A stretch of DNA of 64,000 bases, taken from positions 45,005 to 109,004 of the forward strand of contig JBEKHN010000007.1 of the NCBI GenBank assembly GCA_050012255.1. The letters are read 5' to 3'. The position numbers were made by a program, and so were the translations under genes. The notes below the pieces were generated by a model. The model did not search any database. It saw only the letters and a list, made by a program, of their open reading frames with translations, and was not told the origin of the DNA. Positions 10,212 to 47,082 of this stretch are shown piece after piece (the stretch's first letter is position 1; the number at the start of each line of letters is the position of its first letter). Source of the DNA: Candidatus Bathyarchaeia archaeon. GTDB lineage: Archaea > Thermoproteota > Bathyarchaeia > Bathyarchaeales > Bathycorpusculaceae.

Positions 10212-10390
10212 ACATCCCTGTATTCGCGTTTTCACCTCGTCTATTTCACCCTCCCCCCTAGGGTGTTAGTACTGCAGACGGTCGTTGGTGAGGGCCTTTC
10301 TGACTTTGTGCGGGCTGGAAAGCGGGCGCGTGATGAGGGCTGGGCAGAAGGTTTTGGTTAGGGCTTAGAAACCGTTCGGTGCGCTCTACA
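10212..10390. repeat. Dispersed intergenic repeat, copy A
   Basis: ACATCCCTGTATTCGCGTTTTCACCTCGTCTATTTCACCCTCCCCCCTAGGGTGTTAGTACTGCAG... aligns over about 180 bp with 46903-47082. Confidence 0.9.
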
Positions 10391-10458
10391 ATCCCTTCGT
10401 CTTCTACGCACACTTGTTCATTAGGGTCTGAACAAGTACTTCTCAATGGAGGGTGAGA

Positions 10459-10716
10459 TTATCGTGCTTCTAGAACTTCGAGGACGTTCAAGATGGAGTT
10501 TATCCATCTGAGGTATGCGTTCAGAGACGCGCGCAACGCTACGGTGTCGTCGGCTTCAACACTCAGAACTAGGGACCTGTCTTCTTGCTTCAGGAGCGTT
10601 CGCGCTCGAGTGGTGGCCGGGTTTTTGGCTTCTGGCTTCAAGGAGTTGAGAACCGTTTGTAACTTTTCTTCTGAAGAGAACTTTAAACGTACGGTTGCTC
10701 TTGTCTTCACTGCCAA
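10459..10716 (-). CDS. pcc1: KEOPS complex subunit Pcc1
   Basis: SLKPE...VEADDTVALRASLNAYLRWI motif. Confidence 0.9.
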   Translation of the reverse strand: MAVKTRATVRLKFSSEEKLQTVLNSLKPEAKNPATTRARTLLKQEDRSLVLSVEADDTVALRASLNAYLRWINSILNVLEVLEAR

Positions 10717-10776
10717 GCTTCAAACCCACTGTTAATCGTAAAAACGGTTTTGGACAGAATAGTGAAGTGGGAGAAA

Positions 10777-11082
10777 TTAGGCGGCTTCTGTTTCTTCTTC
10801 TGCTGTTTTCATCGTCTCTTCGGCTGGTAATCCCTTGGCTGAACGTTTCGCTACTACGCCGAGTTTTGTGACTGGCGTGTAGGCCCCGCCCGTGTAGGTG
10901 AACCCGCACTTTCTGCACTTCCAGACGCCGACGCTTTCTCTCTTGACTCTGAGGAATCCGCATTGTGGGCACCGGTGAGGTTTTCTCATTCCTTCCATTA
11001 CTTTGATGTAGCGTTTTCTCACCGTGGAGCCGTAGCGAGGTCCCAGGCCTCGTGCGAGTCCGACTTTCTTAGTTCTCGGCAT
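10777..11082 (-). CDS. rpl37ae: 50S ribosomal protein L37Ae (eL43)
   Basis: RTKKVG...GPRYGSTVRKR, CPQCG...WKCRKCG...GGAYTP. Confidence 0.96.
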   Translation of the reverse strand: MPRTKKVGLARGLGPRYGSTVRKRYIKVMEGMRKPHRCPQCGFLRVKRESVGVWKCRKCGFTYTGGAYTPVTKLGVVAKRSAKGLPAEETMKTAEEETEAA

Positions 11083-11090
11083 GTGGGGTG

Positions 11091-11882
11091 TCACCAGTTC
11101 AGTTTCTTGCGCATTTCCTTGACCTTTTGTTCAATTATCTTCGCTGCTTCCAGCACTTGGCTCGGTTCGAAGTACCCACTGCCGCCCTTCTGTATCGCGC
11201 ATATGTGCCCATCGTCATCAATAGCCATTGAAATCCTTGCGTCCATGACCTGTTCCTCTTCTAGCAGCGGGTCAACGAGGAGCTTGTTCCCTATCTTCGC
11301 GACGGTAACTGTTATCGGCCGCTTGTTTATTGGAAGTTTTTCGTAGCCCGGTTTGATTTTGACTTCTCCTTCTTTGACTTCGTAGTTGGCCATTTTCGTG
11401 TTAAGCAAGGCGGCCACTGCGGCCAACGCTGACGCGTCTATGAGGTTTCCATCGTGGTTGAGAACGTAGATGTCCACGAAGACTACGAAGACCTTCTTTC
11501 CGGCTTCGATGACGAGTTTGTCTGTGTCGATGGCCTTTGACTCTCTTATTCCCCTGTCAACGATTCTTGCAAGTTCTATGGAGTCCTCGTCTGGTGGTCC
11601 TGCCTCGAAAGCCGGTGAGGCTATTGGCGTGAGTTCCGCGTTGACTGTCAAGACGCCTTCGTTAGGCGTGTCTGGAAACGGTTCGCCCATTTCGATCTTC
11701 ACTCCGACCACGACCTCTGTTTTGCCGAGGAGTACCCTGGCAGAGCCTTCAGCGCGTTCGATGATGCCTTGCTCGATTTTCATCTCGCGATAATCTGTCA
11801 GGTCGCGGCCGTCCATGCGTTTTTCTTTGTCTATCATTTCTGTAATCTGCTTCTGCTTTACACGCGTGAGGATTTGGGCCAT
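11091..11882 (-). CDS. rrp42: Exosome subunit Rrp42
   Basis: RNase PH fold: RMDGR...AEGSA...PFPDTPNEG...DGNLIDA. Confidence 0.96.
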   Translation of the reverse strand: MAQILTRVKQKQITEMIDKEKRMDGRDLTDYREMKIEQGIIERAEGSARVLLGKTEVVVGVKIEMGEPFPDTPNEGVLTVNAELTPIASPAFEAGPPDEDSIELARIVDRGIRESKAIDTDKLVIEAGKKVFVVFVDIYVLNHDGNLIDASALAAVAALLNTKMANYEVKEGEVKIKPGYEKLPINKRPITVTVAKIGNKLLVDPLLEEEQVMDARISMAIDDDGHICAIQKGGSGYFEPSQVLEAAKIIEQKVKEMRKKLNW

Positions 11883-12631
11883 TAATCTTCAGCCTCCTCC
11901 TTGATGTCTTCGCTAACGTTGACGTACTTCGTCTTCAGAGCCTCCTTCTGCATGGCGTAGATCTTTCTGCATCCCTCAAGGGCCATGTTAACAGCGGTCT
12001 CGAACTCTTCACGCGTCAGTAAGCCGTCCATCTGCAGAAGTGTCACAGCGTTCAGGTTGGGCATCAGAGCCACCGGGACGTCTGCAGAGCCCACTTTGTC
12101 CTCCGTGTCCATCAGGTCCAGCACCACCGTGTTGTCGATCTTGCCCGCTGCGCACGCTACGACGAGGTCCCTCATGGGAATTCCTGAATCGGCAAGGGCT
12201 AAGGCCGCGGCTGTTATGCTCGCGCATCTTGTTCCCCCGTCAGCCTGCAGCACTTCTATGAAAACATTTACCATTGTTCGGGGGTAGTACTCCATGAAGA
12301 CGGCGGGTTCAAGAGATTCTCTTATCATTTTTGAGAGTTCAATTTCCCTTCTTGAGGGTGCTGGCGATTTGCGTTCTTGCACAGAGAATGGTGCCATGTG
12401 ATAGCGACACTTTAAGACTGTTCGGTCTTGAAGTGCTAAGTGTTTAGGATGCACTTCTCTCGGGCCGTACACGGCTGCCAGAATCTTGTTTTTTCCATGT
12501 TCAACGTACGCTGAGCCGTCGGCGTTCGATATGACGCCGACTTCAAGCTTTACAGGCCTCAGCTCGTCTGGTTTTCTGCCATCCAGTCTTAGGCCTTTTT
12601 TGTCGATTAACTTTTCAGGTTTATCATTCAT
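11882..12631 (-). CDS. rrp41: Exosome subunit Rrp41
   Basis: [25 protein letters not shown]. Confidence 0.97.
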
Positions 12632-13335
12632 TTCTTGTTTTCCTCCCTTTTTGATTTTTCTTCTCGAAGCATCTGGGTTATGCGGTCTGTTAGGCCGCTG
12701 GTATGTGACTCCTGTTCAATTTTAAGGATCGCTCTCAGCGCGAGCTCTTCGTCTTCTAATGTTTTCCCGGTGATCAGAACGACTCCGTTGAGTCCCAGGA
12801 TTATGTTGCATCCCGTTTCCTGCTTTATCATGGATATCATCGAGCCTTTTCTTCCGATCACACGTGGGATCTTCGTCGGTGTGATTTTGACTATTTGTCC
12901 ACGGGTGATCTTTCCCAATCCTGGTTCTGCAACGGTCAGCTGCGGGTCGTGTGTTCTGTCATAGGAGACTATTTTTGCAACCACAAGGTCTCCCGCGTCG
13001 AGCACTTGCGGCAGGTCGTCCTTCTGAGGCTTGAAAGGCCTGCTGAGGACGTCTGATGCTCTCAAGAGGGCGATGTATGGTGAGTTTATGTCCACTGTCC
13101 ACCCGTTGAATCCGACCTCTGTGATCGTTCCTATGACTATGTCTCCCGCTCTTGGGATGTAGAAGGCTTTTAGGGCCACTACGTCCACTCTCTTGTTTTC
13201 GATTTCAATTATTCCGACGCGCGCTGCGTAGATTTTGTTGTTTTCTACGAACGTGTTCTCTCCGGCGATGTACTCGCCTTCTGCGATCAAGTCTCCAGGG
13301 GTCACAAGTTGTTTTCTTTCCAAAAGTATTGGCAT
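12628..13335 (-). CDS. rrp4: Exosome RNA-binding subunit Rrp4
   Basis: VTPGD N-terminus, S1 domain, KH motif [10 protein letters not shown]. Confidence 0.96.
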
Positions 13336-13363
13336 ATTCTACACCTGACCGTTCATAAAACTC

Positions 13364-14053
13364 TTAGCGAACTATTCTTGCTTCCCCGCTTCCTTTGGTT
13401 ACTTCACCGAGTTTATCTAGGAAGGGGGCGTAGGTACCTGCGGGCATCTCCACAATGCCGTACCATGAGCCATCTGGGCGCCATTCTTCGTGTTTGATCG
13501 TTCCGAAGCCCTTGATAGACCCGTAAGCTCTTACTGAGTACGCTGCCGGAATCGTGACGCCCAGCGATATTTGCTCCATTTTAAGTGGCAGAATAGCTCG
13601 CAACGCCTTGATTATCTCCTTTGCCTGCTCTTCCACGGGCTTGAATGGATCTATCGAATAGCGCACCTGTTCCATGGCGTTTTCTATCCGTGCAGGCGGG
13701 TGCGGAAGGTTTGTCTTGGGGTCAACGCTCTGCCTCGATATGAAGTCGACGATCTGTTTCCTCTTGTCCTCGATCATCTTTCTCCGTTGCTCTGTCGTAA
13801 GCTGCAAAGTTCCCTTGGTCAGTATCACTTCTGCTATTTTCAAGGCGTCAGTCGTGTCAAACGCTTTGCGCAGGTTTTCCTCTGAAGCCCTCGTGCCCTT
13901 GTTCGCGTCTGAAAATATCGTTTCGGCAGCCAAGACCTCGGTTACCGAGGCCGTTTTCCCCATGCGGTAGTCTAAGGCCTTCTGGGGTTTAACGAGGACC
14001 TCAAAGTGTTCGTTGTCCTTTGTCATGCGTGCAACGGTGTACTTATCACTCAT
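13364..14053 (-). CDS. Ribosome maturation factor SBDS/Sdo1
   Basis: HFEVLV...IFSDANKG...LQLTTEQRR...PHPPARIENAM. Confidence 0.95.
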   Translation of the reverse strand: MSDKYTVARMTKDNEHFEVLVKPQKALDYRMGKTASVTEVLAAETIFSDANKGTRASEENLRKAFDTTDALKIAEVILTKGTLQLTTEQRRKMIEDKRKQIVDFISRQSVDPKTNLPHPPARIENAMEQVRYSIDPFKPVEEQAKEIIKALRAILPLKMEQISLGVTIPAAYSVRAYGSIKGFGTIKHEEWRPDGSWYGIVEMPAGTYAPFLDKLGEVTKGSGEARIVR

Positions 14054-14060
14054 CGATGTT

Positions 14061-14789
14061 TCACTTGCCCACGCCTAGCTCTTTCATGATGGCATCGACT
14101 TTCTCGTCGCCCAGAATCTCGATCTTCTTGGTCTCCAATGGGATCACTGCTACTTTCACTCTTGGAGGAAGCTGCCTTGCTTCCAGGGCTTTTGCTAGGC
14201 ATTTCACGGCAAGCTTTGTGGCTTCTTTGAGGTCCATTTCTTCCTTGTACTCTTCTTTCAGTATGTTGAAGACTGTTTCTCTTCCAGCGCCCTCTGCTCT
14301 TGCCTTGTATCCTCTGTACGTTCCGCTTGGGTGGGTTCCGAACACGCGGCTTCCAGTCTTGTCGACACCAGCAAAGATCATAGAGACTCCGAAGGGTCTC
14401 ACGCCCGCGTGTTGCGTGTAGAGCTGTTTTATGTCACATATCCTCTTGGTCACGACTTCCGTGTCGATCGGCTCGTCGTACGTAAGCTTGTTCGATTGAG
14501 CGTAAACCCTGGCCTGGTCAATCAGTATGCGCGCATCTGAGCTCAAGCCCACTATGCCCGCGCACACGTGGTCGTCTATCTTGAAGATCTTCCAAGAGTA
14601 TTCTGATTCTTCAAGGGGGTCCACAGTCTCTTCCGCTCCCAAAACGGCTCCCCCTGAGCAGCGGACGGCTAAAATCGTAGCTCCACGGTTGACCAACTCC
14701 ATCGCGTATTCAACTTGAAAAAGCCGGCCGTCTGGTGAAAAAACAGTTATGGCACGGTCGTATGCGCCTGGTGCTGCAAATACGGACAT
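14061..14789 (-). CDS. psmA: Proteasome alpha subunit
   Basis: YDRAITVFSPDGRLFQVEYA signature. Confidence 0.98.
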   Translation of the reverse strand: MSVFAAPGAYDRAITVFSPDGRLFQVEYAMELVNRGATILAVRCSGGAVLGAEETVDPLEESEYSWKIFKIDDHVCAGIVGLSSDARILIDQARVYAQSNKLTYDEPIDTEVVTKRICDIKQLYTQHAGVRPFGVSMIFAGVDKTGSRVFGTHPSGTYRGYKARAEGAGRETVFNILKEEYKEEMDLKEATKLAVKCLAKALEARQLPPRVKVAVIPLETKKIEILGDEKVDAIMKELGVGK

Positions 14790-15179
14790 TCATGCATTCC
14801 TCACAATCTATCCTAATCTATTGCAGTCTTTCATACGACAACTAAACTAAAAACCTTTCCTATCTGAAACTCTTTTAATCTGAGTCCATATTTCAGCCTT
14901 CGAACGATCCTGCTTCATGTTGCCAAAAGCATGTTATGCGCGCAAAGACCGTATTCTTGTCGACTTGCTGTTCTTTCCGCGAAAGAACGCGATTTCTGAA
15001 TCGGTTCTCTGGAGTCCATGAAAACTGGGCTCCATCTAAGCGTGAACGCGAGCTACGTCTTCCTTTTCTTGATTTTCCAAACCAGTGGTATCCTACTCAA
15101 TGATCGAGGTGCGTGGGCTCTGAGCCGATAAACAAAGTGTATAAGCAAGATTTGTCTGTTTGTTCTTTCAGGGAAGGAG

Positions 15180-15506
15180 TTGGACAGGAAGGCTAGGTTC
15201 TGGTTAGGTTTCCTTTTTGTCGTTGTCATGTATTCGCTTCCCATTGCCGGTTTTGCGTATGCTAGATGGGTTTGGCCCTTGGCATTTGTCCTAGGGGCCT
15301 TCGGCTTTTCGATTTACATGGTGTATCGGATGACGATCAAGAATATCAGACTGAAATATCCCATTGTGTCCCCTGAAGGGCACCCGGACATCTATACTGG
15401 ACGCATGCCTAGACCCATATACGAGGACATGCAACGATTCCCTTGGTTCTTCAAGAAGAAGCGAACCAAAAAACTCGGCAGCAAAAAAATCAAAAAGAAA
15501 AAATAA
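15180..15506 (+). CDS. Small membrane protein with two TM helices and Lys-rich tail
   Basis: TTG start after GGGAAGGAG; two hydrophobic segments; C-terminus KKKRTKKLGSKKIKKKK. Confidence 0.6.
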   Translation: MDRKARFWLGFLFVVVMYSLPIAGFAYARWVWPLAFVLGAFGFSIYMVYRMTIKNIRLKYPIVSPEGHPDIYTGRMPRPIYEDMQRFPWFFKKKRTKKLGSKKIKKKK

Positions 15507-15522
15507 CGCTTACTCTGGCGAA

Positions 15523-16749
15523 CTATTCTCTCCAGTCCAGAAGTCTCTTCTCGCCCTCAAGCTTCTTTATGTCCGTCAAGTCCTGTGTGACTTCCATCGT
15601 TCCAAGATATTTTCCGCTCTTATCTCTAACCGCGAAGTATCTGATGTGAACGAAGCGACCGCCCATCGTGATCCAGAATTCAGCAGAATCTTTCCTGCCT
15701 TTTTTGAAGGCATCCACGATCTTGTTCACTATGTGGACGCTTTTCTGCGGGTGGCACATCTGCACTTTTCGGCCGATGACGGCCTTTGTGCGCACGAAGA
15801 TCCTCTTTTCAGCCTTGTTGAAGTACTTCACGCTGTCATTCCTGTCAACGAACGATATGTCTACGGGAAGCGAGTCAAGAATAGCCTCAACTTCTTCTTT
15901 TGAAAGGCTTCCGGTCTCAAACTTCAGTGTTTCCTCAGTCAAGGGTTCCGCTTTGCCTCTTGGCTCTTCTACCTGCATTCTCACCGTTGCGGCTGGAGGT
16001 GTGAAGCAGCAGTAGCCTATCTCGTCGAACTCTTTCCTAGCCTCTTCCCACTCTTCGATCGAAACTGATTCCAGAGCCGCTGGGAACAGTATGTTGTTTT
16101 CTTTGTAAAAGTGAGATGGAAGCAGGCTGCATAATGGTTTCGTCGCGTCGCTCAGTCTTTTCTTGAACTCTTCGTAAGTCATGGTGTTCCATTTTTCAAC
16201 AAGGTTGGTGAACTTCTTCTTGACCTCTCTTATCTTGTCGTGTTCCATCCACATGATAGCCGGAGGTTCTGTGATTCCGTGCTTCTCTACCATGGGAAAG
16301 AGGACGTTCTCCTCCCTCAGGTAATGTTTTTCCGAGTCCTGAAATTCCTTTGCTATGCTTTGCAGTTCAGTCAAGACGTCTCCAACGTAAACGGAGTCGC
16401 ACGCCTCTTCAACCATGCCCAAAAGCGTCTCCAGTCTCTCAGCGCGTTGAAGCATAATACTGTGCTCTTCAATGAGAATGCTGATGGGGTGTCCACGCGG
16501 AATGTGCAACTCCTGCTCCTGCAGTTGTTCGCCGAAGATTGCCATGTGTATGTCACAGAGCTTCTGCAGTTCTTCGCGTGGCATTCCTTCCTTGACAAGT
16601 TCCTGTTCAACCTTGACGATGTCCTCGGAGGTTACGCCCTTGAGGGCTTCTCTGAACTTTTCTTTTACCTCCTCCGGCCGTGCTCCTCCCGGTAACTGCT
16701 TGATTATCTCTTTCAACAGCTTTTTCTTAGCTTCATCCATCCCACTCAT
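15523..16749 (-). CDS. DUF438 / hemerythrin-like / PAS domain protein
   Basis: LCDIH, GHPI..L.EEH, HYLREENVLFP, MWMEHD, C-terminal PAS with CHPQKS. Confidence 0.9.
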   Translation of the reverse strand: MSGMDEAKKKLLKEIIKQLPGGARPEEVKEKFREALKGVTSEDIVKVEQELVKEGMPREELQKLCDIHMAIFGEQLQEQELHIPRGHPISILIEEHSIMLQRAERLETLLGMVEEACDSVYVGDVLTELQSIAKEFQDSEKHYLREENVLFPMVEKHGITEPPAIMWMEHDKIREVKKKFTNLVEKWNTMTYEEFKKRLSDATKPLCSLLPSHFYKENNILFPAALESVSIEEWEEARKEFDEIGYCCFTPPAATVRMQVEEPRGKAEPLTEETLKFETGSLSKEEVEAILDSLPVDISFVDRNDSVKYFNKAEKRIFVRTKAVIGRKVQMCHPQKSVHIVNKIVDAFKKGRKDSAEFWITMGGRFVHIRYFAVRDKSGKYLGTMEVTQDLTDIKKLEGEKRLLDWRE

Positions 16750-16819
16750 ACTGTTTGCACCTTCTCAGAATGCTAGATTCACTCATTACGGGTATTAAAA
16801 CGATAGCGGCCCAGATCTT

Positions 16820-18007
16820 CTAGTCTTCTTCCTTGATTTTCTTTGCAAGAATCTTCCCATACTCGACTATCTTGTTGATGTCGGTTTCTGTCGGTGGACC
16901 ATTGATCTCTAGTGTTCCAACGATTTCCATTTTTGTTGGTCCCAGCGTTTCCTGAATGTGTTTTATCGCCCCTCCGCTCCAGCCATACGAGGTGAGCACG
17001 ACCGCAAACTTTGTCGGTGGACGAAGGACCCTTGCCAAGTACGTCGCGTACATAGCTAGCGGGTGAGCGCCGCCGAGCACTGTGGGGGCGCCTAGGACAA
17101 TTGCTCGAGAGTCAACCAAGTCTCTTGCCAATTCACCTATGTCTCCAACGGCCAAGTTGTGCTTTGCCACTTCTATTCCTTCAGAGGCTAAGGTATCTTC
17201 AATCGCTTTGACCATTTTCTCTGTGCTGTTCCACATGGTCGCGTAGACTATGATCGTCTTCTGTCTGGTTTCTCCGTTCACCCATTTTCGGTAAGCAGAC
17301 AGAATTCGTTCTGGGTTTCTGTGTATGGGCCCGTGGCTCGGTGCGATCATGTTGATCTCTAGGTCTTTGATTTTTTCCATGCCTTTTTGGGCGTTGAATC
17401 TGAAGGGCATCATGATTTCGCCGAAATACTTCTGGGCGAATACGAGTAGATCTTCTATTTCATCGTCGAACAGTCCCTGTGCGACGTGTGAACCGAAGAA
17501 GTCACATGGAAACAGGGTCTTGTTCTCTGGAAGGTAAGTGAACATTGTTTCGGGCCAGTGAAGCATCGGGGCCTCGATGAACCTCAGCGTCTTGCCACCA
17601 AGATCCAGCGAATCTCCGTTTGCAACGGCCTTTATCCTGTTTTCAGGCACCTTGTAAAAGACGCGTGCCATCTTTGCCCCCTGACTCGTGGTAACGAGAA
17701 TGGCCTTGCTGTTGATTGACATAATGTGCGGAATTGAGCCTGCGTGGTCAGGTTCGGCATGGTTCATTATAACGTAGTCGACGTCAGCAGGGTTCACAAC
17801 TTTGCTGATTTTTTCTTCCCATTCCTTTTCAAAACCCGGATTGACAGTGTCAATCACCGCCTTTTTTGCAGTTCCGATCACTAAATATGAATTGTATGTT
17901 GTCCCTCTGGGAAGCGGAATCAACGCGTCGAAGAGTCTTCTGTTATAGTCTCTTATGCCTACCCAGTAGACTTCTTTAGAGATTTCAGCAACGTTTCTCC
18001 AACTCAT
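16820..18007 (-). CDS. fprA: Flavodiiron protein (FprA family)
   Basis: GTTYNSY, NHAEPDHAGS, LHWPETM, IAPSHGP; C-terminal flavodoxin domain. Confidence 0.95.
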   Translation of the reverse strand: MSWRNVAEISKEVYWVGIRDYNRRLFDALIPLPRGTTYNSYLVIGTAKKAVIDTVNPGFEKEWEEKISKVVNPADVDYVIMNHAEPDHAGSIPHIMSINSKAILVTTSQGAKMARVFYKVPENRIKAVANGDSLDLGGKTLRFIEAPMLHWPETMFTYLPENKTLFPCDFFGSHVAQGLFDDEIEDLLVFAQKYFGEIMMPFRFNAQKGMEKIKDLEINMIAPSHGPIHRNPERILSAYRKWVNGETRQKTIIVYATMWNSTEKMVKAIEDTLASEGIEVAKHNLAVGDIGELARDLVDSRAIVLGAPTVLGGAHPLAMYATYLARVLRPPTKFAVVLTSYGWSGGAIKHIQETLGPTKMEIVGTLEINGPPTETDINKIVEYGKILAKKIKEED

Positions 18008-18088
18008 TTTTTCACCTTCAAGTGGATATGACGATTGTAATAAAGTATATTTATGCCTTTCTACAACTACTAGTCGGAAGCCTCGTCA

Positions 18089-32142: not shown

Positions 32143-32284
32143 TAAGAAGACCACAGATGTTTATTAAACATTGCTGAGACTCGCATACTAGCATTCATCG
32201 CATGAGCGTTCAGGATAGAAAATCAGGCTGAGGCCATCAAGCAGACTTCACAAGCAGTCGCCGAAGACCGCATCACAGTATTTG

Positions 32285-32351
32285 CTGCAGAAAAAAACCG
32301 AGGGGGGTAGACGTGTTAGACGAGTAAAAACGCGAAACAGGGAATGTTAAC
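32285..32351. repeat. Dispersed intergenic repeat, degenerate copy D (inverted)
   Basis: Reverse complement GTTAACATTCCCTGTTTCGCGTTTTTACTCGTCTAACACGTCTACCCCCCTCGGTTTTTTTCTGCAG matches the copy A core. Confidence 0.7.
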
Positions 32352-37025: not shown

Positions 37026-37210
37026 GACAACTGTGCTCCTTGTGGTGACAAAAGAACTAAACGACCATGACGTATTTATCGGTTGCTGGGCAAGAAACTC
37101 TGCACTGTTTTAAGAAGGATGAAAACGTGCCAGCCCGCTGGCCAGCGAATGTGATCCCATCCAATATCAGCATAGGCGGCTCAGGATGCCTGACTCTGTA
37201 TAACACGCAC

Positions 37211-37277
37211 GTTCCCCGTATTCGCATTTTCACCAGTCCATTTTGCCTTCCCACCTCCACCTAGGCTTTTTCTGCAG
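37211..37277. repeat. Dispersed intergenic repeat, degenerate copy C
   Basis: GTTCCCCGTATTCGCATTTTCACCAGTCCATTTTGCCTTCCCACCTCCACCTAGGCTTTTTCTGCAG matches the A/B core. Confidence 0.72.
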
Positions 37278-37368
37278 CTGGCACTGATGACACGGCCTCA
37301 GGGGGGACAATGGTGAAGTCTTCTTGTTAGTTGAGTTGCCGTTCTAACCATTAAGGTCGAACCGTGTG

Positions 37369-39702: not shown

Positions 39703-39932
39703 AATGTGCAATATGCGACAGAAAATCGCGCACAGGCAAGTATTGTAGGTCGCACGAGAAAGCATGCGAAAACATCGTTAGAAGTTATGAGCAGTGGAGA
39801 AAGGCATTAGAGATTTCTTGGAAAGAGTATTTAAGTCAGATTGCCAACAATCCATTAACAGGAGAATGGACGGTAGAAGTCGTCCAACATCTGTTGAAAA
39901 GTGGAGAGCAGTCAAATGTCAAGAACGGTTAA
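39699..39932 (+). CDS. Small conserved Zn-finger-like protein
   Basis: CAIC...YCRSH; overlaps the topA stop. Confidence 0.7.
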   Translation: MKCAICDRKSRTGKYCRSHEKACENIVRSYEQWRKALEISWKEYLSQIANNPLTGEWTVEVVQHLLKSGEQSNVKNG

Positions 39933-40341
39933 GAAAAGCATCTCTTCGTTGTCATTTTCACTAAACAAACTTTATAGGATGATCTCGACGACAAGACCAT
40001 CAAATCTCTTAATTCCACTGCTCTCGATAGGTTTTGCCGTGTTTTTGTTCGGAGGCGGGCTGTACGACTTGATAATGAAACCGCTTCCAGCAGTCTATTA
40101 TGGTGGGCGATTCCTGTTTCTCTACCCGTCGCTTTCCGAGCAGTTCATAGGCGACAGCATCGTTTCCATAACTGTCTACGCCCTTGGAATAATCGGCTTG
40201 CTGGCAGTATATCAGAGCACCAAGTATGTGTACAAGCCAAGACAAGCCTACATGATGTTGATCATAGGAATCGTTCTTGTGCTGTTGGCATACATATTTC
40301 TTGAAGCCTCAATACACTTTAAGTTGACCGGAGGCGCATGA
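39916..40341 (+). CDS. OST3/OST6 (OSTC/DC2-like) family membrane protein
   Basis: Three TM helices with GGGLYDLIMKP...QFIGDSIVS...LGIIGL, similar to the OSTC pattern GGIIYDVIVEP...QYIMEG...MGGLG. Confidence 0.65.
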   Translation: MSRTVKKSISSLSFSLNKLYRMISTTRPSNLLIPLLSIGFAVFLFGGGLYDLIMKPLPAVYYGGRFLFLYPSLSEQFIGDSIVSITVYALGIIGLLAVYQSTKYVYKPRQAYMMLIIGIVLVLLAYIFLEASIHFKLTGGA

Positions 40342-40358
40342 GAGTACATCGCCAAGCA

Positions 40359-40856
40359 TTACCAAGGATTACTTTTTAGCCTCAACTTGTACGCAGCGAA
40401 GTTTGTTAACAGATGAATGGGAGGAGTAATGACTAGAACTGTGACACACAGCTCCCAACTCCACGCCATGGAAAGAGGAAACGAGAAAAGAATCGCGCCT
40501 AATATGAAGTCTAGTTGATCCACAACTGGCAACCGCCCGCCTGGAGGAATGGCAAGTCTCCGCTTTACAAAGGCTCCAGCCAAGTCTCCAAACAGAGCGC
40601 CCAAAGACAGCAGCAAACCAAACATGATGTGATAATTGAAGACCAAACTCTCTGCCAAACCTGCCACCGTTCCGACAGCCAGCCCGGCAAAAAAACCTCG
40701 AAAAGTCTTGTTTTTCCCGAACACAGGTCTTCCATCAGGAAGCTTTTTCCCAAAATCCATAGCTGGCCCACCACCAGCAAGTACAGGAACGGCATTCGCA
40801 CAATACGCAGGAAATATAAACTCTAGCGCTCGAACGACTATCTGAACTAAGTCCAT
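40359..40856 (-). CDS. carS: CDP-archaeol synthase
   Basis: PAYCANA, DGRPVFGKNKTFRG, GDLAGAFVKRR, DQLDF. Confidence 0.93.
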   Translation of the reverse strand: MDLVQIVVRALEFIFPAYCANAVPVLAGGGPAMDFGKKLPDGRPVFGKNKTFRGFFAGLAVGTVAGLAESLVFNYHIMFGLLLSLGALFGDLAGAFVKRRLAIPPGGRLPVVDQLDFILGAILFSFPLSMAWSWELCVTVLVITPPIHLLTNFAAYKLRLKSNPW

Positions 40857-40885
40857 TCTCCATACTCCGTTTAATAAGGCTGATA

Positions 40886-41569
40886 CTAGTGTATTCCACG
40901 TTCTTCAATTCTTAAGTTACAAGTCATTGGAGGAAGCTTTGCCGGGTTCTTTTCTACAGTTGCCTCGATTGCCTGGGGGTTTTCAGTGAGCTTCATAGCA
41001 AGAACCGTGTCGGCCCAGAACTTTACGACTCTCGTGGCAACAGGCGCGATGCTCACAGGAACTTCATTCAGAACGCTGTGAACCTGACTGGTCAACAAAA
41101 CCACAATTCTCTGGGTCCTGGCAGCCTGTGCTAGGCTTGCCAACTGTCTGTTCAGTTCTCGGTTAAGCTCAAACGTTTTTGACGGAGACTCTGCAATCCT
41201 AAGGCGATACAGTGACGTTACGGTGTCGAAGACGACGAGCTTGAAATTCTGGTTTACATAATCAGTCAACTGATCTACGACCATAGTCTGCTCACGAAAA
41301 TCATTCGGCCTGACTAGAATTATCAGTTCCGGAACTTCTTTGGACTGTTCAGGAACGATCTGAGAAAGCCTTTGAGCTGAAAATGTTCTGTCAGAATCCA
41401 CAAAGAGCGTTTTGTAGCCTTGCCTCCCACAGTTTGTGGCACACTGCATGGCTAGTGTTGTTTTTCCAGTTTCAGCTTCGCCATAGATGAGGGCAACGGT
41501 GTCAACTGGGAAACCCCCTTTTAGGAACTCGTCAATTGGTCTGCAATTTGTTGGAATTTTTTTAAGCAT
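40886..41569 (-). CDS. radB: RadB-like RecA-family ATPase
   Basis: IDEFLKGG, YGEAETGKTT, VVFDTVTSLYR; lacks the RadA N-terminal domain. Confidence 0.75.
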   Translation of the reverse strand: MLKKIPTNCRPIDEFLKGGFPVDTVALIYGEAETGKTTLAMQCATNCGRQGYKTLFVDSDRTFSAQRLSQIVPEQSKEVPELIILVRPNDFREQTMVVDQLTDYVNQNFKLVVFDTVTSLYRLRIAESPSKTFELNRELNRQLASLAQAARTQRIVVLLTSQVHSVLNEVPVSIAPVATRVVKFWADTVLAMKLTENPQAIEATVEKNPAKLPPMTCNLRIEERGIH

Positions 41570-41650
41570 GTCCGTGCACGTCAACAGATATAAACGGCCG
41601 AATTATAATGTGTTTTTGTGTTCAAAAGTCCTGAGCGCCCGGATAGTTGT

Positions 41651-42304
41651 ATGAAAGCGAAAATAGCGGTGGCAACAGTTTCAGGGAAAGCCTACTTTCT
41701 TATCGTAAGCGAGCTTAAGAGGAGGAATGTTTCTTTTCTAAGCTTAACTCCATGCGAACCTGTTCCAATAGAGATCAAAGTTGTCATAACCACCGAAGGG
41801 GAAAAGGAATTGATAAACCATGAAGAAGTACTGGCCTACAAGAATGGAATGGAGACAGCAGCATTCATAAACGAAGCCCTGCAAATTGTTCAGGGAAAAG
41901 GATCGTTTGAAAAAGTGACTATAGGTGTCGACCCAGGTGAGGTTTTTGGACTAGCAGTTCTAGCAGATGGCAGAGTGGTTGAAACAGGAAACTGTTACAG
42001 CGTAGAAGAGACTCTGCATAAAATAGAGACGATAATCAGGGGCCTCAAGAACACTCCAGTCTCAACGATTTCAGTAAAGGTCGGCGATGGAGTTCCTGCG
42101 TGCAAAGAAAGACTCTTGCGAGACTTGGACAACGCACTGCCCCCCAACGTGGTGCTAGAAAGCGTAAGAGAAGCTGGTACAAACCGTCGTCTCAACGAAG
42201 CGAAACACAGAAGAGGCTTAAGAGATATTGTTTCGGCGATTCAGATAGCAGGGAGAAACGGACATTTGTTTCAAAGGAGGAAGCCAGGTGAATCGCACAG
42301 TTGA
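41651..42304 (+). CDS. Conserved archaeal protein with RNase H-like (YqgF-like) domain
   Basis: IGVDPGE.FGLAV, KVGDG, V.E.GT, DIVSAIQIA. Confidence 0.7.
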   Translation: MKAKIAVATVSGKAYFLIVSELKRRNVSFLSLTPCEPVPIEIKVVITTEGEKELINHEEVLAYKNGMETAAFINEALQIVQGKGSFEKVTIGVDPGEVFGLAVLADGRVVETGNCYSVEETLHKIETIIRGLKNTPVSTISVKVGDGVPACKERLLRDLDNALPPNVVLESVREAGTNRRLNEAKHRRGLRDIVSAIQIAGRNGHLFQRRKPGESHS

Positions 42305-43604
42305 AAATGGCAGGACTCTTCTAGTTGACGGCCCGGCCTCGGTCACTCTGAGTTCAGGCAAAGTAGAAGTTTTCGGGTCAGCGATAAGTGAAAAGGGTAA
42401 AGTTGTTATACGTGAAGGCAAGAGGCTGCCTTTTGCAGTTCAGGAAAGGGCTGTTCTTGACATTTCATTAGGAGAAAACGCAGCAGTCGAAGAAGTTGAT
42501 GGCAACACTATCCCCTCATCCTGGATTGAATCAGCTCAGGAGCTTCTGGACCTGCAAACCAGACCTGTAACGGCGATGATCTTCGGGAATGCGGACTCTG
42601 GAAAAACAGGTTTTTGCACGTACCTATTGAACAGAGTCTTACGTGAAAAACGTAAAGTCGCAGTTTTGGACGGAGACTTGGGTCAGTCAGACGTTGGGCC
42701 ACCGTCAACTGTCGCCTACGCTTTTGTGAATAAAGCAGTAACCGACCTCTTCAACCTTCAAGCAAAAAACGCGTTCTTCATTGGCGAAACGTCACCAGGC
42801 AACGCTGTAGACAAGATGATCGAAGGTCTTTCCTTGCTGAAGAAAGAGATCATGGCTACCAATCCTGAGTTCTTGGTCATAAACACTGACGGCTGGGTCG
42901 AAGGAGAATGCGCCGTTGCGTACAAACTCAAACTTGCTGAGGAACTTGAGCCTGGAGTGATTTTTTGCATCCGCCAAACAGATGAACTAGCACCGCTCCT
43001 GACCGCCCTTGAAAAATTCAAAAAAGTCACTGTTGAATCTCCTGTCGCAATAAGGCGAAGAGACAGCGAAAGACGCAAGACCCTTCGCGAACTCGGATAC
43101 AAGAAATACTTAAGAAACCCAAGAGTTCAGTCACTTTCGTTGAGCTGGCTGAAAGTTGAGGGAAACGATTCTTTTGGCTTAACTAAGCCTCACATGAACA
43201 ATAGGGAAGCAAGAAGAATATGCGATCTCCTCGGAATGAAGCCCTTGCAACTATCAGAACTAAGTGATAGAATCAGCATAGTCATTGGTAGAAGACGCTG
43301 GATCAGCTCGGACAACATAAAGAAGGTTGAGCAGGCAACCAAAAAGAGGGTTGTGGTAACCAGAAAAGGCGAAGAAGAAAGGTTGCTCGCAGCTTTGTAT
43401 GACGACAAGAGAAGATTTCTCGGCATCGGCATCTTGCAGGAAGTCGACTACCTTAGGAAGGCCTTGAAAGTTATCACCCCTGTGTCTGAAGAAGCGTCAA
43501 TCCTTGTCTTGGGAAAGGTGAAGCTTGACAAGAACATGAAAGAGATTTCCCTGACTGCTGAAGAAAACAACTTAGACTTTTCGTCTTTCAAGAAACTTTT
43601 TTAA
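42288..43604 (+). CDS. Clp1/Grc3/Nol9 polynucleotide 5'-kinase
   Basis: GNADSGKT, DGDLGQSDVGPP, INTDGW, RR..R lid. Confidence 0.9.
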   Translation: MNRTVENGRTLLVDGPASVTLSSGKVEVFGSAISEKGKVVIREGKRLPFAVQERAVLDISLGENAAVEEVDGNTIPSSWIESAQELLDLQTRPVTAMIFGNADSGKTGFCTYLLNRVLREKRKVAVLDGDLGQSDVGPPSTVAYAFVNKAVTDLFNLQAKNAFFIGETSPGNAVDKMIEGLSLLKKEIMATNPEFLVINTDGWVEGECAVAYKLKLAEELEPGVIFCIRQTDELAPLLTALEKFKKVTVESPVAIRRRDSERRKTLRELGYKKYLRNPRVQSLSLSWLKVEGNDSFGLTKPHMNNREARRICDLLGMKPLQLSELSDRISIVIGRRRWISSDNIKKVEQATKKRVVVTRKGEEERLLAALYDDKRRFLGIGILQEVDYLRKALKVITPVSEEASILVLGKVKLDKNMKEISLTAEENNLDFSSFKKLF

Positions 43605-43892
43605 AGAAATACGATGGCCAGAACGTTCAGAAGCCGTAGAAAACTGAATTCTTTTTCGACTGGCATGGCCTTAAGCCAAAGCGCGCGCTATTACGTCTGG
43701 ATCGAATTTGGTTCGCCGAGCTGGGATATGGGTGATTCCTGGACCGTTTTGGGGCCAGTCGACGTCATGCGGTACGATAGCACGCGCGTTCTCGCGGATA
43801 AGAGCGGCGAGGTCGATTCCAAATTGGGTCCCTTGTTGTTTTGTCGACGGTTCTGCTCCGAAGAAAGAACGCGCGCCCACAAGCGTCTTGTT

Positions 43893-44555
43893 TTAGCTCC
43901 ATAGATGTCTCGATGGGCAAAGCCTGGCTAAAGGGCATTCCTTGCACAGCGGAGTTTTTGCTTTGCAGTACTTTCTCCCGTGTAAAATCAACAATGTGTG
44001 AACAGCCAGGTAGTCTTTTGGATCGTAGATCGACTGAAGAGCTCCACGCACAGTTTCGTAGTCTGCCACTCGAGGAGCCAGGCCCAGCCGTTTGGATACT
44101 CTGTTAACGTGCGTATCAACGGGCACTGTTGGTTTTTTGGCGCTGAACAGCAATAAAACGTCTGCTGTTTTGGGTCCGACGCCGGGAAGTTGCAACAGTC
44201 CTTCTCTTGCCTCATCGAGAGGCTTCGACAAGATTTATGCTAGGTTACCGTTGTATTTCTTGAGTATTATCCTTGAGACTTGTTGTATCGCCCGAGCTTT
44301 GTTGTGGTACAGGCCAGCAACTTTCAAGCAGTTTTCGATCTGTTTGATTTCAGCGTCTGCGAGGGTTTCGGGAGTTATTCGGAACTTGTTCGAGAGGTTT
44401 TCGAAGGCTCTTGCGGTGTTCTTGTCGTTGGTGTTTTGTGAAATGATCGTTGCAATCAACGTTGCGAAGGGGTTCCGAGTCGCGGTCGTCCATGTTGCCA
44501 TCGCAAACGTGGTGCGAAGTATTCTGAGGATTGTTTCGGCACGACGGTCGGCCAT
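43893..44555 (-). pseudogene. nth: Endonuclease III (HhH-GPD, FeS) with one in-frame TAA
   Basis: PFATLIATIISQNT.D, GLYHNKA, TAA at 44235-44237, then LPGVGPKTA, VDTHV, C-x6-C-x2-C-x5-C. Confidence 0.85.
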
Positions 44556-44628
44556 TAGGGAGCCCCGTGTTTTGAAAGTAATAAATAGTGAGTGCTCGAA
44601 GCTACTAATAAGCAATGGAGAGGGAAGG

Positions 44629-45000
44629 TTGGAGCGGGCAAGAGTCTTTAAGGACGAAATAACTGAGCAGAGCACGCGTTTTCTTGCGGTCTATGTGGAA
44701 GCGAAGAATTCATGTTTGGTAATGCTGAGTGAGAGGGAAGACAAGCTTGGGACGCTTGCAATCGCTGTTCCAAGACCGAAGGATTTGCTCGGCCCCCCAT
44801 CGTCATCAGTTCTCCTCGGGGACAAGAACGCGATTTCAGCCCGCATGTTCGCGGAATACTTGGCTGCAAGAAAGGAGAAGATTGCCTTGGTCTCGGTTTA
44901 TCTTGAAACGATGGATGAGACACAGGCGCAGTCAATCTTTAAACGCTTGATAGAGAGGGTTGCCCACGAGCAGCCGCAGAAGGAGGCATCTGGCGCATGA
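44629..45000 (+). CDS. Proteasome assembly chaperone 4 (PAC4/PSMG4)-like protein
   Basis: TTG start; KLGTLAIAVP...SSSVLLG...ARMFAEYLA...ALVSV pattern. The longer 44092 ORF is antisense overlap with nth. Confidence 0.6.
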   Translation: MERARVFKDEITEQSTRFLAVYVEAKNSCLVMLSEREDKLGTLAIAVPRPKDLLGPPSSSVLLGDKNAISARMFAEYLAARKEKIALVSVYLETMDETQAQSIFKRLIERVAHEQPQKEASGA

Positions 45001-46343
45001 GCCTCAGAGACTTTCTCAAACAAATGGAAAAAGAAAGGGAGGTTTTGCACGTAAAGGATGAGGTCTCGTCACGCTTTGAAATGGCGTACGTCATGAAGAG
45101 CTTTGATGTCGAAGGTCCAATTCTGCTTTTTGAGAACGTGAAGGATCATGCGATGAGGGTTGTTGCTAACGTCTCGGGGACTAGAGAGAGAATTTACAGA
45201 GCGCTCAATGTTGGCCATGATGAGCTTTATGGAAGACTGACGGCTGCTTGGCGCTTGCCGAGTAAACCCAACAAGGTCAAGAATGCTGCAGTTAAAGAGT
45301 GTAAAGAGAAAGATGTTGACTTATCGAGGATTCCTGTTCTTACTCACTTTGAGAAGGACGCGGGGCCTTACATCACTTCGGCAGTTGTGCATGCTAGAAG
45401 CCTCGAGGGAGAGGTCGAGAACGTGTCAGTGCATCGCCTTCAGGTCTTGGACAGAAAGCACTTGGCGATTCGTCTGGTGCCCCGGCATCTCTTCAAATTG
45501 TGGCGAATGGCAAAAGAGGCTGGAAAAGACCTTGACGTAGCGATCTCTGTCGGCGTTCACCCAGCAGTTTTGCTGGCAGCTTCTTGTCCTCTGCCCTTCG
45601 GCGTGAGCGAGTATGGCGTTGCAAACGCCTTGTTGGACAACAACCTCAAGCTGACTGAGTGTGAGCAAGTGAACGCTTGTTCCCCAGCTGAGGCTGAACT
45701 TGTCTTGGAAGGAAGAATCTCGGCGACGAAAGAGGTTGCGGAGGGCCCGTTTGTCGATGTCACTGGAACTTATGATGTGCAGAGAAAGCAGCCGGTTGTA
45801 GACATCGTAGGTCTTACGCACAGACGGGAATATGTGTATCAAGCGCTTCTCTCCTCTGGAGCTGAGCACAGGCTTCTGATGGGGTTGCCTCACGAAGTGC
45901 TGATCTGGGAAGCAGTTTCGAAGGTTGTACCGAGGGTTTGCGCAGTAAACCTGTCAGCCGGTGGAAGTGGGTGGCTTCACGCTGTGATCTCTGTTGAGAA
46001 GCAACTGGAAGGTGATGGGAAGAACGCTTTGTTGGCGGCCTTTGCGGCGCATCCGAGTTTGAAGCATGCGGTAGTCGTGGATTCTGACATTGACGTGTGT
46101 GACGTTTCAGACGTGGAGTGGGCTGTTGCGACGCGTTTTCAAGGAAGTGAAGACTTGATCGTGATGGAGAACGTGCGCGGTTCAAGTTTGGACCCTTCAG
46201 CGGATCAGGAGAGGGTCTTGACTGCGAAAGTGGGCTTCGACGCCACTAAACCTTTGGGGAAGCCGAGAGAGAAGTTTGAAAAAGCGAGGATTCCGGCTGG
46301 CGATAGCGCTGAAAAGATCGTTCGCAGGTTGCGTCGAGCATGA
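44997..46343 (+). CDS. UbiD family decarboxylase (possible anhydromevalonate phosphate decarboxylase)
   Basis: DAGPYIT, NVSVHR, EGPFVDVTG.YD, VVDSDID...VEWAVATR. Confidence 0.9.
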   Translation: MSLRDFLKQMEKEREVLHVKDEVSSRFEMAYVMKSFDVEGPILLFENVKDHAMRVVANVSGTRERIYRALNVGHDELYGRLTAAWRLPSKPNKVKNAAVKECKEKDVDLSRIPVLTHFEKDAGPYITSAVVHARSLEGEVENVSVHRLQVLDRKHLAIRLVPRHLFKLWRMAKEAGKDLDVAISVGVHPAVLLAASCPLPFGVSEYGVANALLDNNLKLTECEQVNACSPAEAELVLEGRISATKEVAEGPFVDVTGTYDVQRKQPVVDIVGLTHRREYVYQALLSSGAEHRLLMGLPHEVLIWEAVSKVVPRVCAVNLSAGGSGWLHAVISVEKQLEGDGKNALLAAFAAHPSLKHAVVVDSDIDVCDVSDVEWAVATRFQGSEDLIVMENVRGSSLDPSADQERVLTAKVGFDATKPLGKPREKFEKARIPAGDSAEKIVRRLRRA

Positions 46344-46388
46344 GTGGAGGTGACTTGTTTGGCGGGGGAGAAGAAGAGGGAAGGAGAC

Positions 46389-46847
46389 GTGTCTCTTAGA
46401 GTTGAGGACGTCATGGTGAAGGAGGTCATCACCATAGACGAAGACTTGACTGTGAAAGAGGCTGCGGAGATCATGAACAAGTTTGAGATCGGCTGCGTGA
46501 TCGGCGTGAGAAGAGGGAAGGCCATGGGAATACTGACTGAACGAGACGTGCTGAAAAGGGTGGTTGCAGAGGGCAAAGATGCTGGTAAGATTAAGGTAAG
46601 AGATGCCATGACGAGTCCTCTGGTTATCGCTGAGCCGGGCATGGACCTCGGGGAAGCGGTGAAGCTGATGTTTCAGATGAAGATCAAGAAACTGCCCGTG
46701 GTTGATGGAAAACGCCTCGTGGGCTTGGTGAGTCTGACGGATATAGCTCGTTTTCAGCCTCAGATGATCACTATACTGAAGCAGCTTGCAGCGAGACAGA
46801 CACCACCGAAAAGCATGCAGAAAGTCATCGACCGCTACGTTGTATAG
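46389..46847 (+). CDS. CBS domain pair protein
   Basis: VEDVM...GILTERD...MTSP...LPVV...GLVSLTD. Confidence 0.9.
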   Translation: MSLRVEDVMVKEVITIDEDLTVKEAAEIMNKFEIGCVIGVRRGKAMGILTERDVLKRVVAEGKDAGKIKVRDAMTSPLVIAEPGMDLGEAVKLMFQMKIKKLPVVDGKRLVGLVSLTDIARFQPQMITILKQLAARQTPPKSMQKVIDRYVV

Positions 46848-46902
46848 ACAAACGCTCATGGTCTCTGTTCCGATTCCAAGCGAGCGCGCGCACATGAGCG
46901 CT

Positions 46903-47082
46903 ACATCCCTGTATTCGCGTTTTCACCCCGTCTATTTCACCCTCCCCCTCCCCCCTAGGGTACTAGTACTGCACGTAGGCTTTCGTGAAGGCCCTAGTGG
47001 ATTTGTATGGGCTTGAAGCTGAGCGCGTGCCGAGCGCTCAGCAGAGGGTCTGGGAAAGGGTCGTAACTTTTCAATGCACTGT
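46903..47082. repeat. Dispersed intergenic repeat, copy B
   Basis: Core near-identical to 10212-10277 with a 6-bp insertion in the C-tract; weaker similarity continues to about 47082. Confidence 0.9.

Follow-up and report, generated by a model that had tools for sequence, protein, structure and literature searches.

Short dispersed intergenic repeats of probable mobile origin in a genus of Bathyarchaeia

Repeat copies in the window and their anatomy

In the window (the whole 64-kb stretch of DNA that was analysed), the genes for prefoldin beta (positions 9725-10093, minus strand) and pcc1 (10459-10716, minus strand) are separated by a repeat copy, here called copy A. The whole insertion is 256 bp long and occupies 10195..10450 on the plus strand, with bounds taken from an empty site in the congener G007, where the junctions were read base by base. 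Directly 5ʹ of it lies a target motif, GTGTTCGCG (10186..10194, plus strand), which is also present in the G007 empty site. The family-conserved segment of copy A, comprising a core of ~75 nt plus a variable region, spans 10210..10388 on the plus strand (C7:55214-55392), and the equivalent segment of copy B lies at 46900..47080 on the same strand (C7:91904-92084), with homology to long-form copies that extends to about 47185 in an extended alignment. Both belong to subfamily F1a of the repeat family that we call F1. Copies C (37213..37338, plus strand, degenerate) and D (32233..32350, minus strand) represent the sister subfamily F1b, and copy D lies ~70 nt downstream of the stop codon of a glycosyltransferase gene on the same strand.

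Four related stretches had been noticed in a preliminary description of this DNA, and all four were located and proved to be related. A repeat search links 10212-10257 with 37210-37255 (63%) and with 46903-46948 (98%), and pairs 10246-10363 with 46943-47060 (72%). An nhmmer profile built from 26 genome copies matches B with an E value of 2e-58, A with 1e-42 and C with 4e-5, and D with only about 1. A second profile was built from ten other F1b copies, leaving out C and D; this independent profile matches C at 2e-11 and D at 7e-24, in addition to the alignment. A full scan of the 64-kb window revealed no fifth copy.

The repeat unit is about 185 nt long, or about 300-325 nt in roughly 14 of the 27 F1a copies, and is thus longer than the core of ~65 bp first proposed. 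One edge of the element is sharp and the other decays. Its first 75 nt are 80-92% identical among paralogues per 15-column window, compared with 61-70% for the remainder. Pure neutral decay of dead copies would not predict this likeness of the core, which calls for gene conversion, constraint on source copies, or a host function and is a point against the reading favoured below. The build is modular, in that the AACAT, TTCGCGTTTT and C-tract/CTAGG modules are found repeatedly in differing arrangements, and only about 20 nt of the core are perfectly identical between subfamilies. Some details that had been read from the four copies hold for part of the family only. The stacked palindromes CCCTAGGG and AGTACT hardly vary within F1a, but are confined to it; CTGCAG is present in A, C and D, but is missing from 25 of the 26 aligned F1a copies (mostly CTGCAC); and the two TTTCACC repeats exist in A and B, but occur elsewhere as variants (GACC/GGCC, TTCCACC/TTTTACC). 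In F1b, and in a third subfamily termed F1c, an oligo-T run follows the C-tract.

Insertion, distribution and age of the family

Profile searches of the 2.35-Mb genome that contains the window (G000) yielded 27 copies of F1a and 16 of F1b, confirming the expectation from their density in the window that many more would be present genome-wide. Together these are about 43 dispersed copies, mostly intergenic and in both orientations; 34 of 39 overlap no called ORF of at least 100 aa. Orientation is random with respect to both the upstream gene (14 same strand, 12 opposite) and the downstream gene (13 same, 14 opposite).

Insertion A is present in G000 and G001 and missing from G007. When window positions 9600-11000 were used as the query, parts 1-595 and 852-1401 were found to be directly adjacent in G007, such that the two flanks of A abut within the same spacer. 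The proposal that copy A interrupts the pcc1-pfdB junction is thereby borne out, and G007 supplies the empty-site orthologue that had been suggested as a check. The junction reads ...CTGTTCGCG^GGGCG..., placing the insertion directly 3ʹ of ...GTTCGCG. Comparison of the filled site in G000 with the empty site in G007 reveals no target-site duplication at this one junction. When compared in inverted orientation, the two ends of A show no relation to each other, and the repeat search listed no inverted pair at the copies. The initial failure to see terminal inverted repeats (TIRs), target duplication or a transposase holds for F1a. F1c carries a 9-bp inverted repeat, TTCAACATG/CATGTTGAA, which is terminal on the right only and lies ~20 nt inside the end on the left. 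At the locus of copy B, the genomes G003, G004 and G009 all lack an element.

The target motif GTGTTCGCG resembles a stretch of the F1 core itself, CTGTATTCGCG, and matches core-model positions 9-25 with E values of 0.03 and 0.18 in two scans. Of 39 copies, 7 (18%) have an exact TTCGCG at a distance of 11-42 nt on their upstream side, compared with a background of 1.5% (P 2e-6), and the sequence flanking copy C3_154430 resembles the 5ʹ end of an older element that was severed after TTCGCG. For F1a, a single clean filled/empty pair, together with the enrichment in 18% of copies, is the basis for both the absence of duplication and the target motif. On this basis, an enzyme acting in trans would cut or join 3ʹ of a TTCGCG-type motif. 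Because F1 bears such a motif within its conserved 5ʹ core, new copies would be expected to land in or next to older ones, which may account for the nested and two-unit forms.

More distant species of the same genus carry F1c, with at least 37 copies in G003. Profile matches number 37 in G003, 6 in G004, 10 in G002, 8 in G010 and 0 in G009, a congener of 97% completeness. By BLAST, 4 of 10 congeners match (one by a 22-nt C-tract only), as do 0 of 30 other genera, and a profile search of 150 genomes of the family found nothing beyond the genus save two marginal C-tract matches. Scans of public genomes and viruses with a 16-17-nt core pattern returned mostly chance matches among those listed; among the 128 loci listed, at least 5 passed the full-length profile, all of them genome records, and none of the 14 viral loci did so. 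A metagenome scan gave 69 loci. One full F1 copy resides on a contig binned to a bacterial metagenome-assembled genome (MAG).

None of the 21 copies examined in G003, G004 and G002 occupies the site of a G000 copy, although a fragment of the flank of one of the 21 maps to within ~1 kb of such a site. At locus L347 of G002 the flanks are collinear in G000, where the spacer measures 131 nt versus 297 nt. In G003, the spacer between pcc1 and pfdB holds an F1c copy, which raised the idea of concerted evolution at orthologous sites; for the family as a whole this was rejected, as none of the 21 copies shares a site. Evidence of a young burst is seen in G003, where a 16-nt end motif occurs in 28 exact copies. 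Two candidates for new insertions from the metagenome scan, each containing an F1 copy, were discarded. The pair L313/L260 is a segmental duplication 457 bp long and flanked by a repeat of 14-15 bp; one of its arms duplicates another locus and the other the end of a gene on the integrase side. L266 is a variable island next to a tRNA gene. Neither is a product of F1 transposition.

Because the copies of each lineage occupy their own intergenic sites, and because copy A is precisely inserted, we regard F1 as mobile DNA rather than a conserved host site. Specifically, we consider it probable (roughly 0.6) that the subfamilies F1a, F1b and F1c together form a superfamily, F1, of short mobile DNA elements that are non-coding, non-autonomous and restricted to this genus. 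The suggestion of a non-autonomous mobile unit was among those made at the outset, and the filled/empty pair at A, the lineage-specific sites and the lack of any attached gene support it. On this reading, the copies in this archaeon and its close relatives are formerly mobile genomic parasites of an ordinary kind. In this genome the copies are old, and F1 appears to be no longer active, given that identity between the closest paralogues is about 90% and that two sister species have most of the copies in common with it.

Copies also exchange sequence, as the orthologue gives the best match to the variable region in no more than 9 out of 28 comparisons. Across 20 collinear orthologous pairs, this region shows 75% identity, compared with 85.5% at third codon positions. 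Synteny is broken on both sides of the copy at 5 of 35 loci, and an 11-kb inversion lies between an F1b copy and an F1a copy. The present effect of F1 is likely to be that of a substrate for ectopic recombination.

Competing interpretations

A repeat of mobile origin could have had its 75-nt core recruited by the host as a DNA site that binds a protein or has a regulatory role, in the manner of REP/BIME sequences, with the adjacent palindromes CCCTAGGG and GTACTAGTAC predicted to bind a dimeric protein. Such a role would fit the contrast in paralogue identity between core and remainder, the (near) invariance of both palindromes in the 26 aligned F1a copies, and a core identity of 91% between collinear orthologues, somewhat above that of third codon positions. 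However, the core is conserved no better than the flanks when all 37 orthologous pairs are taken (0.87 each), and gene conversion can explain its homogeneity. Moreover, the palindromes are missing from F1b and F1c, orientation and neighbours are random, the nearly complete G009 shows no match, and positions are not kept between species of the genus. This last finding also contradicts the chromosome-organising protein site contemplated in the preliminary description, and we judge a host site to be unlikely. A leader or regulatory element of a particular gene class was likewise rejected on the random neighbours and orientation. Improbable, too, is a multi-copy structured non-coding RNA gene on the plus strand of the element, starting at the sharp 5ʹ edge. 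The consensus fold of the variable region is stronger on this strand (-28.5 versus -16.2 kcal/mol), pairing occurs in 87% of cells of the predicted helices and includes many G-U pairs, and the oligo-T of F1b and F1c could end an archaeal transcript. Yet the observed pairing of 87.1% compares with 87.3% in column shuffles, and 398 of 500 shuffles reach it. The 30 column pairs that covary most strongly in 64 copies include 28 whose members are separated by just 1-3 nt, and not one long-range Watson-Crick pair, so the proposed covariation check brought no compensatory base changes to light. Nothing conserved and promoter-like precedes the sharp edge, and Rfam models gave no match to the window at gathering score or to copy B at E values up to 1, which leaves the earlier structured-RNA proposal without support. 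The C-tract and T-run were also considered as a terminator and rejected, since upstream genes are co-directional in 14 cases versus opposite in 6, which is not significant.

The identity of the moving enzyme bears on two further readings. No TnpB match (PF07282, PF01385) was found in G000 and no HUH Y1 transposase (PF01797) in five genomes, one of them closed, with controls matching in 6-8 of 14 genomes. The IS110 DEDD recombinase (PF01548) is absent from G000, G001, G007 and G002 and occurs once in G003; an IS110 transposase was not found in the three F1a-bearing genomes searched. No parent insertion sequence (IS) sharing F1 ends was detected in G000, G001, G007, G003 or G002 (all but G001 incomplete), and the extended flanks of 26 copies hold no attached long ORF with a conserved frame, such that the search for a copy joined to a recombinase or HUH gene came back empty. 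An IS5-like element was rejected as a partner because its ends differ, and a possible autonomous F1c in G003, signalled by four end motifs without a C-tract match, resolved into ordinary variant or truncated copies. Nor is F1 the attachment site of integrated islands, as an island in G001 is bounded by its own 12-bp repeat ~350 nt from a copy. The absence of TIRs and target duplication in F1a, the apparent insertion 3ʹ of a short specific motif, and the pairing of one sharp with one decaying edge would all suit remnant ends of the IS200/IS605 type (PATE-like), possibly with a guide-RNA scaffold for TnpB or IscB. With neither TnpB nor Y1 matches, no conserved ORF beside the copies and no covariation, this origin is very unlikely, and the guide-RNA (omega-RNA) end of a TnpB element that the two edges suggested was set aside for want of those matches. 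Movement might instead depend on an enzyme not yet recognised as a transposase, site-specific and duplication-free, that recognises a TTCGCG-containing core in element and target. A candidate would be one of the 9-13 tyrosine recombinases per genome. We consider this unlikely; it would explain the synteny breaks as well as the swaps inside a core with so little perfect identity between subfamilies, and the cores would then also serve recombinase-driven inversion and translocation. Finally, the 62-aa frames on the opposite strand (10258-10446 and 46994-47182) can hardly represent a small protein gene. A frame that ends ...CSTSTLGGRGRVE/K has stayed open in about ten of 26 copies, but the frame is broken or shifted in most copies, its Pro/Ser/Arg-rich residues are those that G+C-rich non-coding DNA would give, and the two window frames lack a Pfam match.

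Significance and relation to known repeat families

Bathyarchaeia are abundant uncultured archaea of sediment and peat whose mobile DNA has hardly been described. Our literature search found no description of such repeats in this group, and the accessible parts of a 2026 survey of archaeal IS elements (PMC13343696) and of a review of miniature elements (MITEs; PMC10969869) do not mention Bathyarchaeia. Taken alone, F1 is an ordinary kind of feature. It can serve to mark lineages and genome rearrangements within the genus, and its copies at contig ends, together with the one on a bacterial-MAG contig, are a warning for binning and assembly. If the absence of TIRs and duplication holds at more junctions, F1 might also offer a handle on new transposition chemistry.

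Archaeal MITEs are recorded for Sulfolobus, Halobacterium and Haloquadratum in the accessible part of that review, which portrays prokaryotic MITEs, much like F1, as short, non-coding, multi-copy, intergenic and lineage-specific families that differ in presence or absence between relatives and act as rearrangement substrates (PMC10969869). F1 agrees with classical MITEs in size, non-coding nature, copy number and presence/absence polymorphism. In contrast to MITEs, F1a has no TIRs, the one junction that could be read shows no target duplication, the inverted repeat of F1c measures only 9 bp, and no parent IS with F1 ends was found in the genomes searched.

A second, unrelated repeat family of 205 nt in the same genome, F2, is a classical MITE of an IS5-like element. 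Its TIRs match those of a 1.13-kb IS encoding a 331-aa DDE_Tnp_1 transposase, and its empty allele shows an overlap of ~4 nt between the flanks. F1 and F2 share genomes, a similar copy number and the C-tract motif CACCCTCCCCCC..GGGTA, whereas F1 lacks clear TIRs, a matching parent IS and the flank overlap.

The palindrome-associated elements (PATEs) derived from IS200/IS605 and TnpB guide-RNA ends have no TIR and no target duplication, and insert 3ʹ of a short specific sequence. F1a resembles PATEs in the first two respects and may do so in the third, since copy A lies 3ʹ of such a motif and TTCGCG is enriched upstream in 7 of 39 copies, but F1 differs from them in that its genomes yield no match to TnpB (searched in G000) or to TnpA (Y1, in five genomes). 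Bacterial mosaic repeats include REP/BIME, BOX and Correia sequences, and some IS elements insert into such repeats. No RAYT-type Y1 gene was matched in the five genomes searched, and the F1 units are longer, archaeal and limited to one genus. Nevertheless, F1 has in common with these repeats a modular build and a probable role as recombination substrate, and, like the IS elements that target repeats, it appears to insert next to members of its own family. F1 is a so far undescribed family of an already known kind of repeat.

Copies and anatomy of the F1 repeats

All four repeat stretches that the preliminary description placed in the window proved real when each place was read directly: copies A (10195..10450) and B (46900..47080), which belong to subfamily F1a, and copies C (37213..37338) and D (32233..32350, minus strand), which belong to F1b. 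The kinship it proposed among A, B and C was recovered by a repeat search of the window, which links all three over their first 46 nt and extends the match between A and B by another 118 nt. Its gene names were likewise upheld: copy A resides between the prefoldin beta and Pcc1 genes, copy B is flanked by a CBS-domain gene and a Sua5 gene, and a topoisomerase gene comes after copy C. No fifth copy was found by a profile scan of the whole window. Elsewhere in the window, seven tandem 120-nt units that are 66-85% identical (53436-54455) lie inside a 569-aa frame (53166-54875), a predicted 40-residue repeat protein.

The window corresponds to C7:45005-109004 of the source assembly, G000 (2.35 Mb in 38 contigs, 98.5% complete). 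This assembly yielded about 26 more loci in the genome-wide BLAST search that had been proposed, conducted with copies A and B. A first F1 profile, built from the BLAST-found copies, gave 40 matches in G000 at E values up to 1, of which 26 are full-length copies that score 134-197, one is a full-length but diverged copy and about a dozen are short matches that all have a common start edge. Copy C was matched by this profile at E 4e-5 and copy D at E ~1. The short matches represent the sister subfamily F1b, and a profile of ten F1b copies from which C and D were left out matched these two with E values of 7e-24 (D) and 2e-11 (C), raising the F1b count in G000 to 16.

F1a copies have a sharp 5' edge (...CGCT ACATCCCTGTATTCGCGTTTT...), and their first 75 nt are 80-92% identical among copies, with just 61-70% identity over the following 110 nt. 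A long form of 300-325 nt is common to about 14 of the 27 copies, and in 5 of 27 copies the long-form tail matches the C-tract module weakly for a second time (E 0.02-0.4), again on the same strand. F1b has AACAT, TTCGCGTTTT and C-tract/CTAGG modules in common with F1a, beyond which come an oligo-T stretch and then a 3' part unlike that of F1a. The third subfamily, F1c, is found in more distant congeners, is about 195 nt long and contains a 9-bp inverted repeat. The paired TTTCACC repeats reported for A and B and the CTGCAG reported for A, C and D are present in those copies, and the aligned copies reveal that neither is a trait of the whole family.

Insertion sites and mobility

The empty-site orthologue that the preliminary description had suggested seeking exists in the congener genome G007, where both flanks of copy A directly adjoin. 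Base-by-base comparison with G000 defines copy A as an insertion of 256 bp that spans window 10195-10450 and follows ...GTGTTCGCG. No bases are duplicated at this junction and the insertion ends are unrelated, and the claimed lack of terminal inverted repeats and target duplication thus holds for F1a at the one readable junction. Insertion A is also present in G001, and the copy B locus carries no element in G003, G004 or G009. In a crude gene call, no ORF of at least 100 aa overlaps 34 of 39 copies, and the remaining five are overlapped by predicted frames running through the element; copies are oriented either way relative to neighbouring genes.

BLAST placed the family in 4 of 10 congeners (one of these, G002, being matched by a 22-nt C-tract only) and in 0 of 30 other genera. 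A profile search of 150 genomes of the taxonomic family found none outside the genus except two marginal C-tract matches; profile matches number 37 in G003, 6 in G004, 10 in G002, 8 in G010 and 0 in G009. None of 21 examined copies of G003, G004 and G002 shares its site with a G000 copy, although one flank fragment maps within about 1 kb of one. At least one of the 21 occupies a filled site: in G000 its flanks are collinear and the spacer between them is shorter. Each lineage has therefore spread its own F1 version to its own sites. F1 is, or was, mobile, and the filled and empty alleles of A together with these lineage-specific sites support the earlier suggestion of a non-autonomous mobile unit. 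The pcc1-pfdB spacer holds F1c in G003 and F1a in G000 and G001, is empty in G007, and is spanned by a G004 match whose gap is just about 47 nt, which suggests that it has been used repeatedly.

Among the matches listed for which a title was recorded, those passing the full-length profile are titled as Bathyarchaeota or Bathyarchaeia MAGs, with one exception. A 7.9-kb public contig titled as an Acidiferrales MAG (L125) contains a full F1a copy (score 119.5), and may therefore be misbinned Bathyarchaeia DNA.

An exact TTCGCG precedes 7 of 39 copies at a distance of 11-42 nt (background 1.5%, P 2e-6), the sequence upstream of A aligns to core-model positions 9-25 (E 0.03; 0.18 in a second scan), and the flank of copy C3_154430 resembles an older copy's start that ends after TTCGCG. 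From one clean junction and these statistics, we infer that insertion probably occurs 3' of a motif carried by the element itself, an arrangement that would produce nested and two-unit forms.

Products, enzymes and a second repeat family

A structured ncRNA had been offered as an alternative, and the data lend it no support. Rfam gave no match in the window at gathering score and none on copy B at E up to 1, and no tRNAs were found in the window. The consensus fold is weak (-12 kcal/mol, with double changes at 4 of 23 pairs), overall folding is about equal on both strands, and the best plus-strand structure pairs 87.1% of cells versus 87.3% in shuffles. Across 64 copies from three genomes, the 30 strongest column pairs include no long-range covarying pair, 28 of them being only 1-3 nt apart. 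In about ten of 26 copies the antisense frame is open; it is shifted in the remainder, and the two frames in the window have no Pfam match. As judged from sequence, F1 appears to be without a detectable RNA or protein product.

The search for a moving enzyme found no TnpB domains in G000 and no Y1 HUH transposase in five genomes; IS110 was present only in G003 among the genomes searched. Tyrosine recombinases (12 in G000, 9 in G001, 10 in G007 and 13 in G004) do not track the F1 family, and no G000 copy has one within 5 kb. At the left end of a 10.45-kb insertion in G001 (L097:2027-12478, relative to G000 C18:11108-11119), an integrated element flanked by the 12-bp repeat TTCATAAAAGAA, stands one such recombinase. 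IS4/IS5-type transposases also occur, most numerous and intact in G003; an element of this type was rejected as the F1 parent, as its 23-28-nt terminal repeats match the ends of a second family, F2, and not those of F1.

F2 is about 205 nt long, has terminal inverted repeats (TAGCGCGCATGCTTGTTCC), occupies at least 25 loci in G000 (e.g. C1:250244-250449, C13:11285-11490 and C4:16940-17142), shares a C-tract motif with F1 and has no copy in the window. It also occurs at contig ends (C15:1-127, C25:1-132 and C8:1-114), and is polymorphic, being present in G007 (L257:964-1169) and absent from G000 C4:77060-77063. A 1.13-kb IS in G003 (L360:1056-2180) and G001 (L361:1052-2182), with a 331-aa DDE_Tnp_1 frame, is the likely parent of F2, since its 23-28-nt terminal repeats match the F2 ends; G000 and G007 retain only fragments of this transposase type. 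Immediately upstream of F1 copies are short palindromes of type TAGCGCGCGCTA that look like a pair of F2/IS ends placed end to end; those 5' of copy B in G001 (L046) and G007 (L073), and near 77060 on G000 C4, may be excision footprints.

Age, exchange and relation to known elements

Most G001 and G007 copies occupy sites orthologous to G000 copies, and the closest paralogues in G000 are about 90% identical, which argues that the family is old and probably inactive in this genome. Over 37 orthologous pairs, the upstream flank and the core each have an identity of 0.87 and the variable region one of 0.73. The 20 collinear pairs give 0.91 for the core and 0.75 for the variable region, which is thus more divergent than near-neutral sites (third codon positions in flanking genes, 0.855). 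The variable region finds its best match in the orthologue in just 9 of 28 cases, and many columns are two-state with frequencies near 50:50. We take this to mean that copies have exchanged old variants, through core crossover or gene conversion, which would also hold the core uniform.

Different G000 regions lie on either side of the copy at 5 of 35 loci, and several more have one side unmatched. In G007, one end of an 11-kb inversion falls in an F1b copy and the other in an inverted F1a copy, and on one metagenome contig the flank of one copy is joined to copy B's body and flank. The G000 assembly is itself broken by the family at C25/C11: the end of C25 stops in an F1a copy, and synteny with G001 and G007 puts the start of C11 next. 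At G000 C1:195980-196160, a variable island adjoining a tRNA gene, a sediment population carries about 2 kb of other genes and an F1a copy. A sediment metagenome contig (L313:1857-2328) has, at the site of G000 C10:74335-74349, a 457-bp segment with a 14-15-bp direct repeat on either side. The segment combines a copy of G000 C4:115742-115882, where a small YHS/TRASH-like gene starts, with an F1a copy and with 82 nt that resemble the end of a gene adjoining an integrase.

A literature search found no description of such repeats in the Bathyarchaeia lineage, and the consulted passages of an archaeal IS survey (PMC13343696) and of a MITE review (PMC10969869) do not mention the group. We consider it improbable that F1 reports an unrecognised site-specific mobilisation mechanism. 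IS200/IS605-derived elements lack terminal inverted repeats and target duplication, and F1a is like them in this respect, but their defining enzymes were not found here. From MITEs, F1a differs in lacking both terminal inverted repeats and target duplication at the one readable junction and in having no known parent, yet in the way it works F1 resembles MITE or REP-like dispersed repeats.
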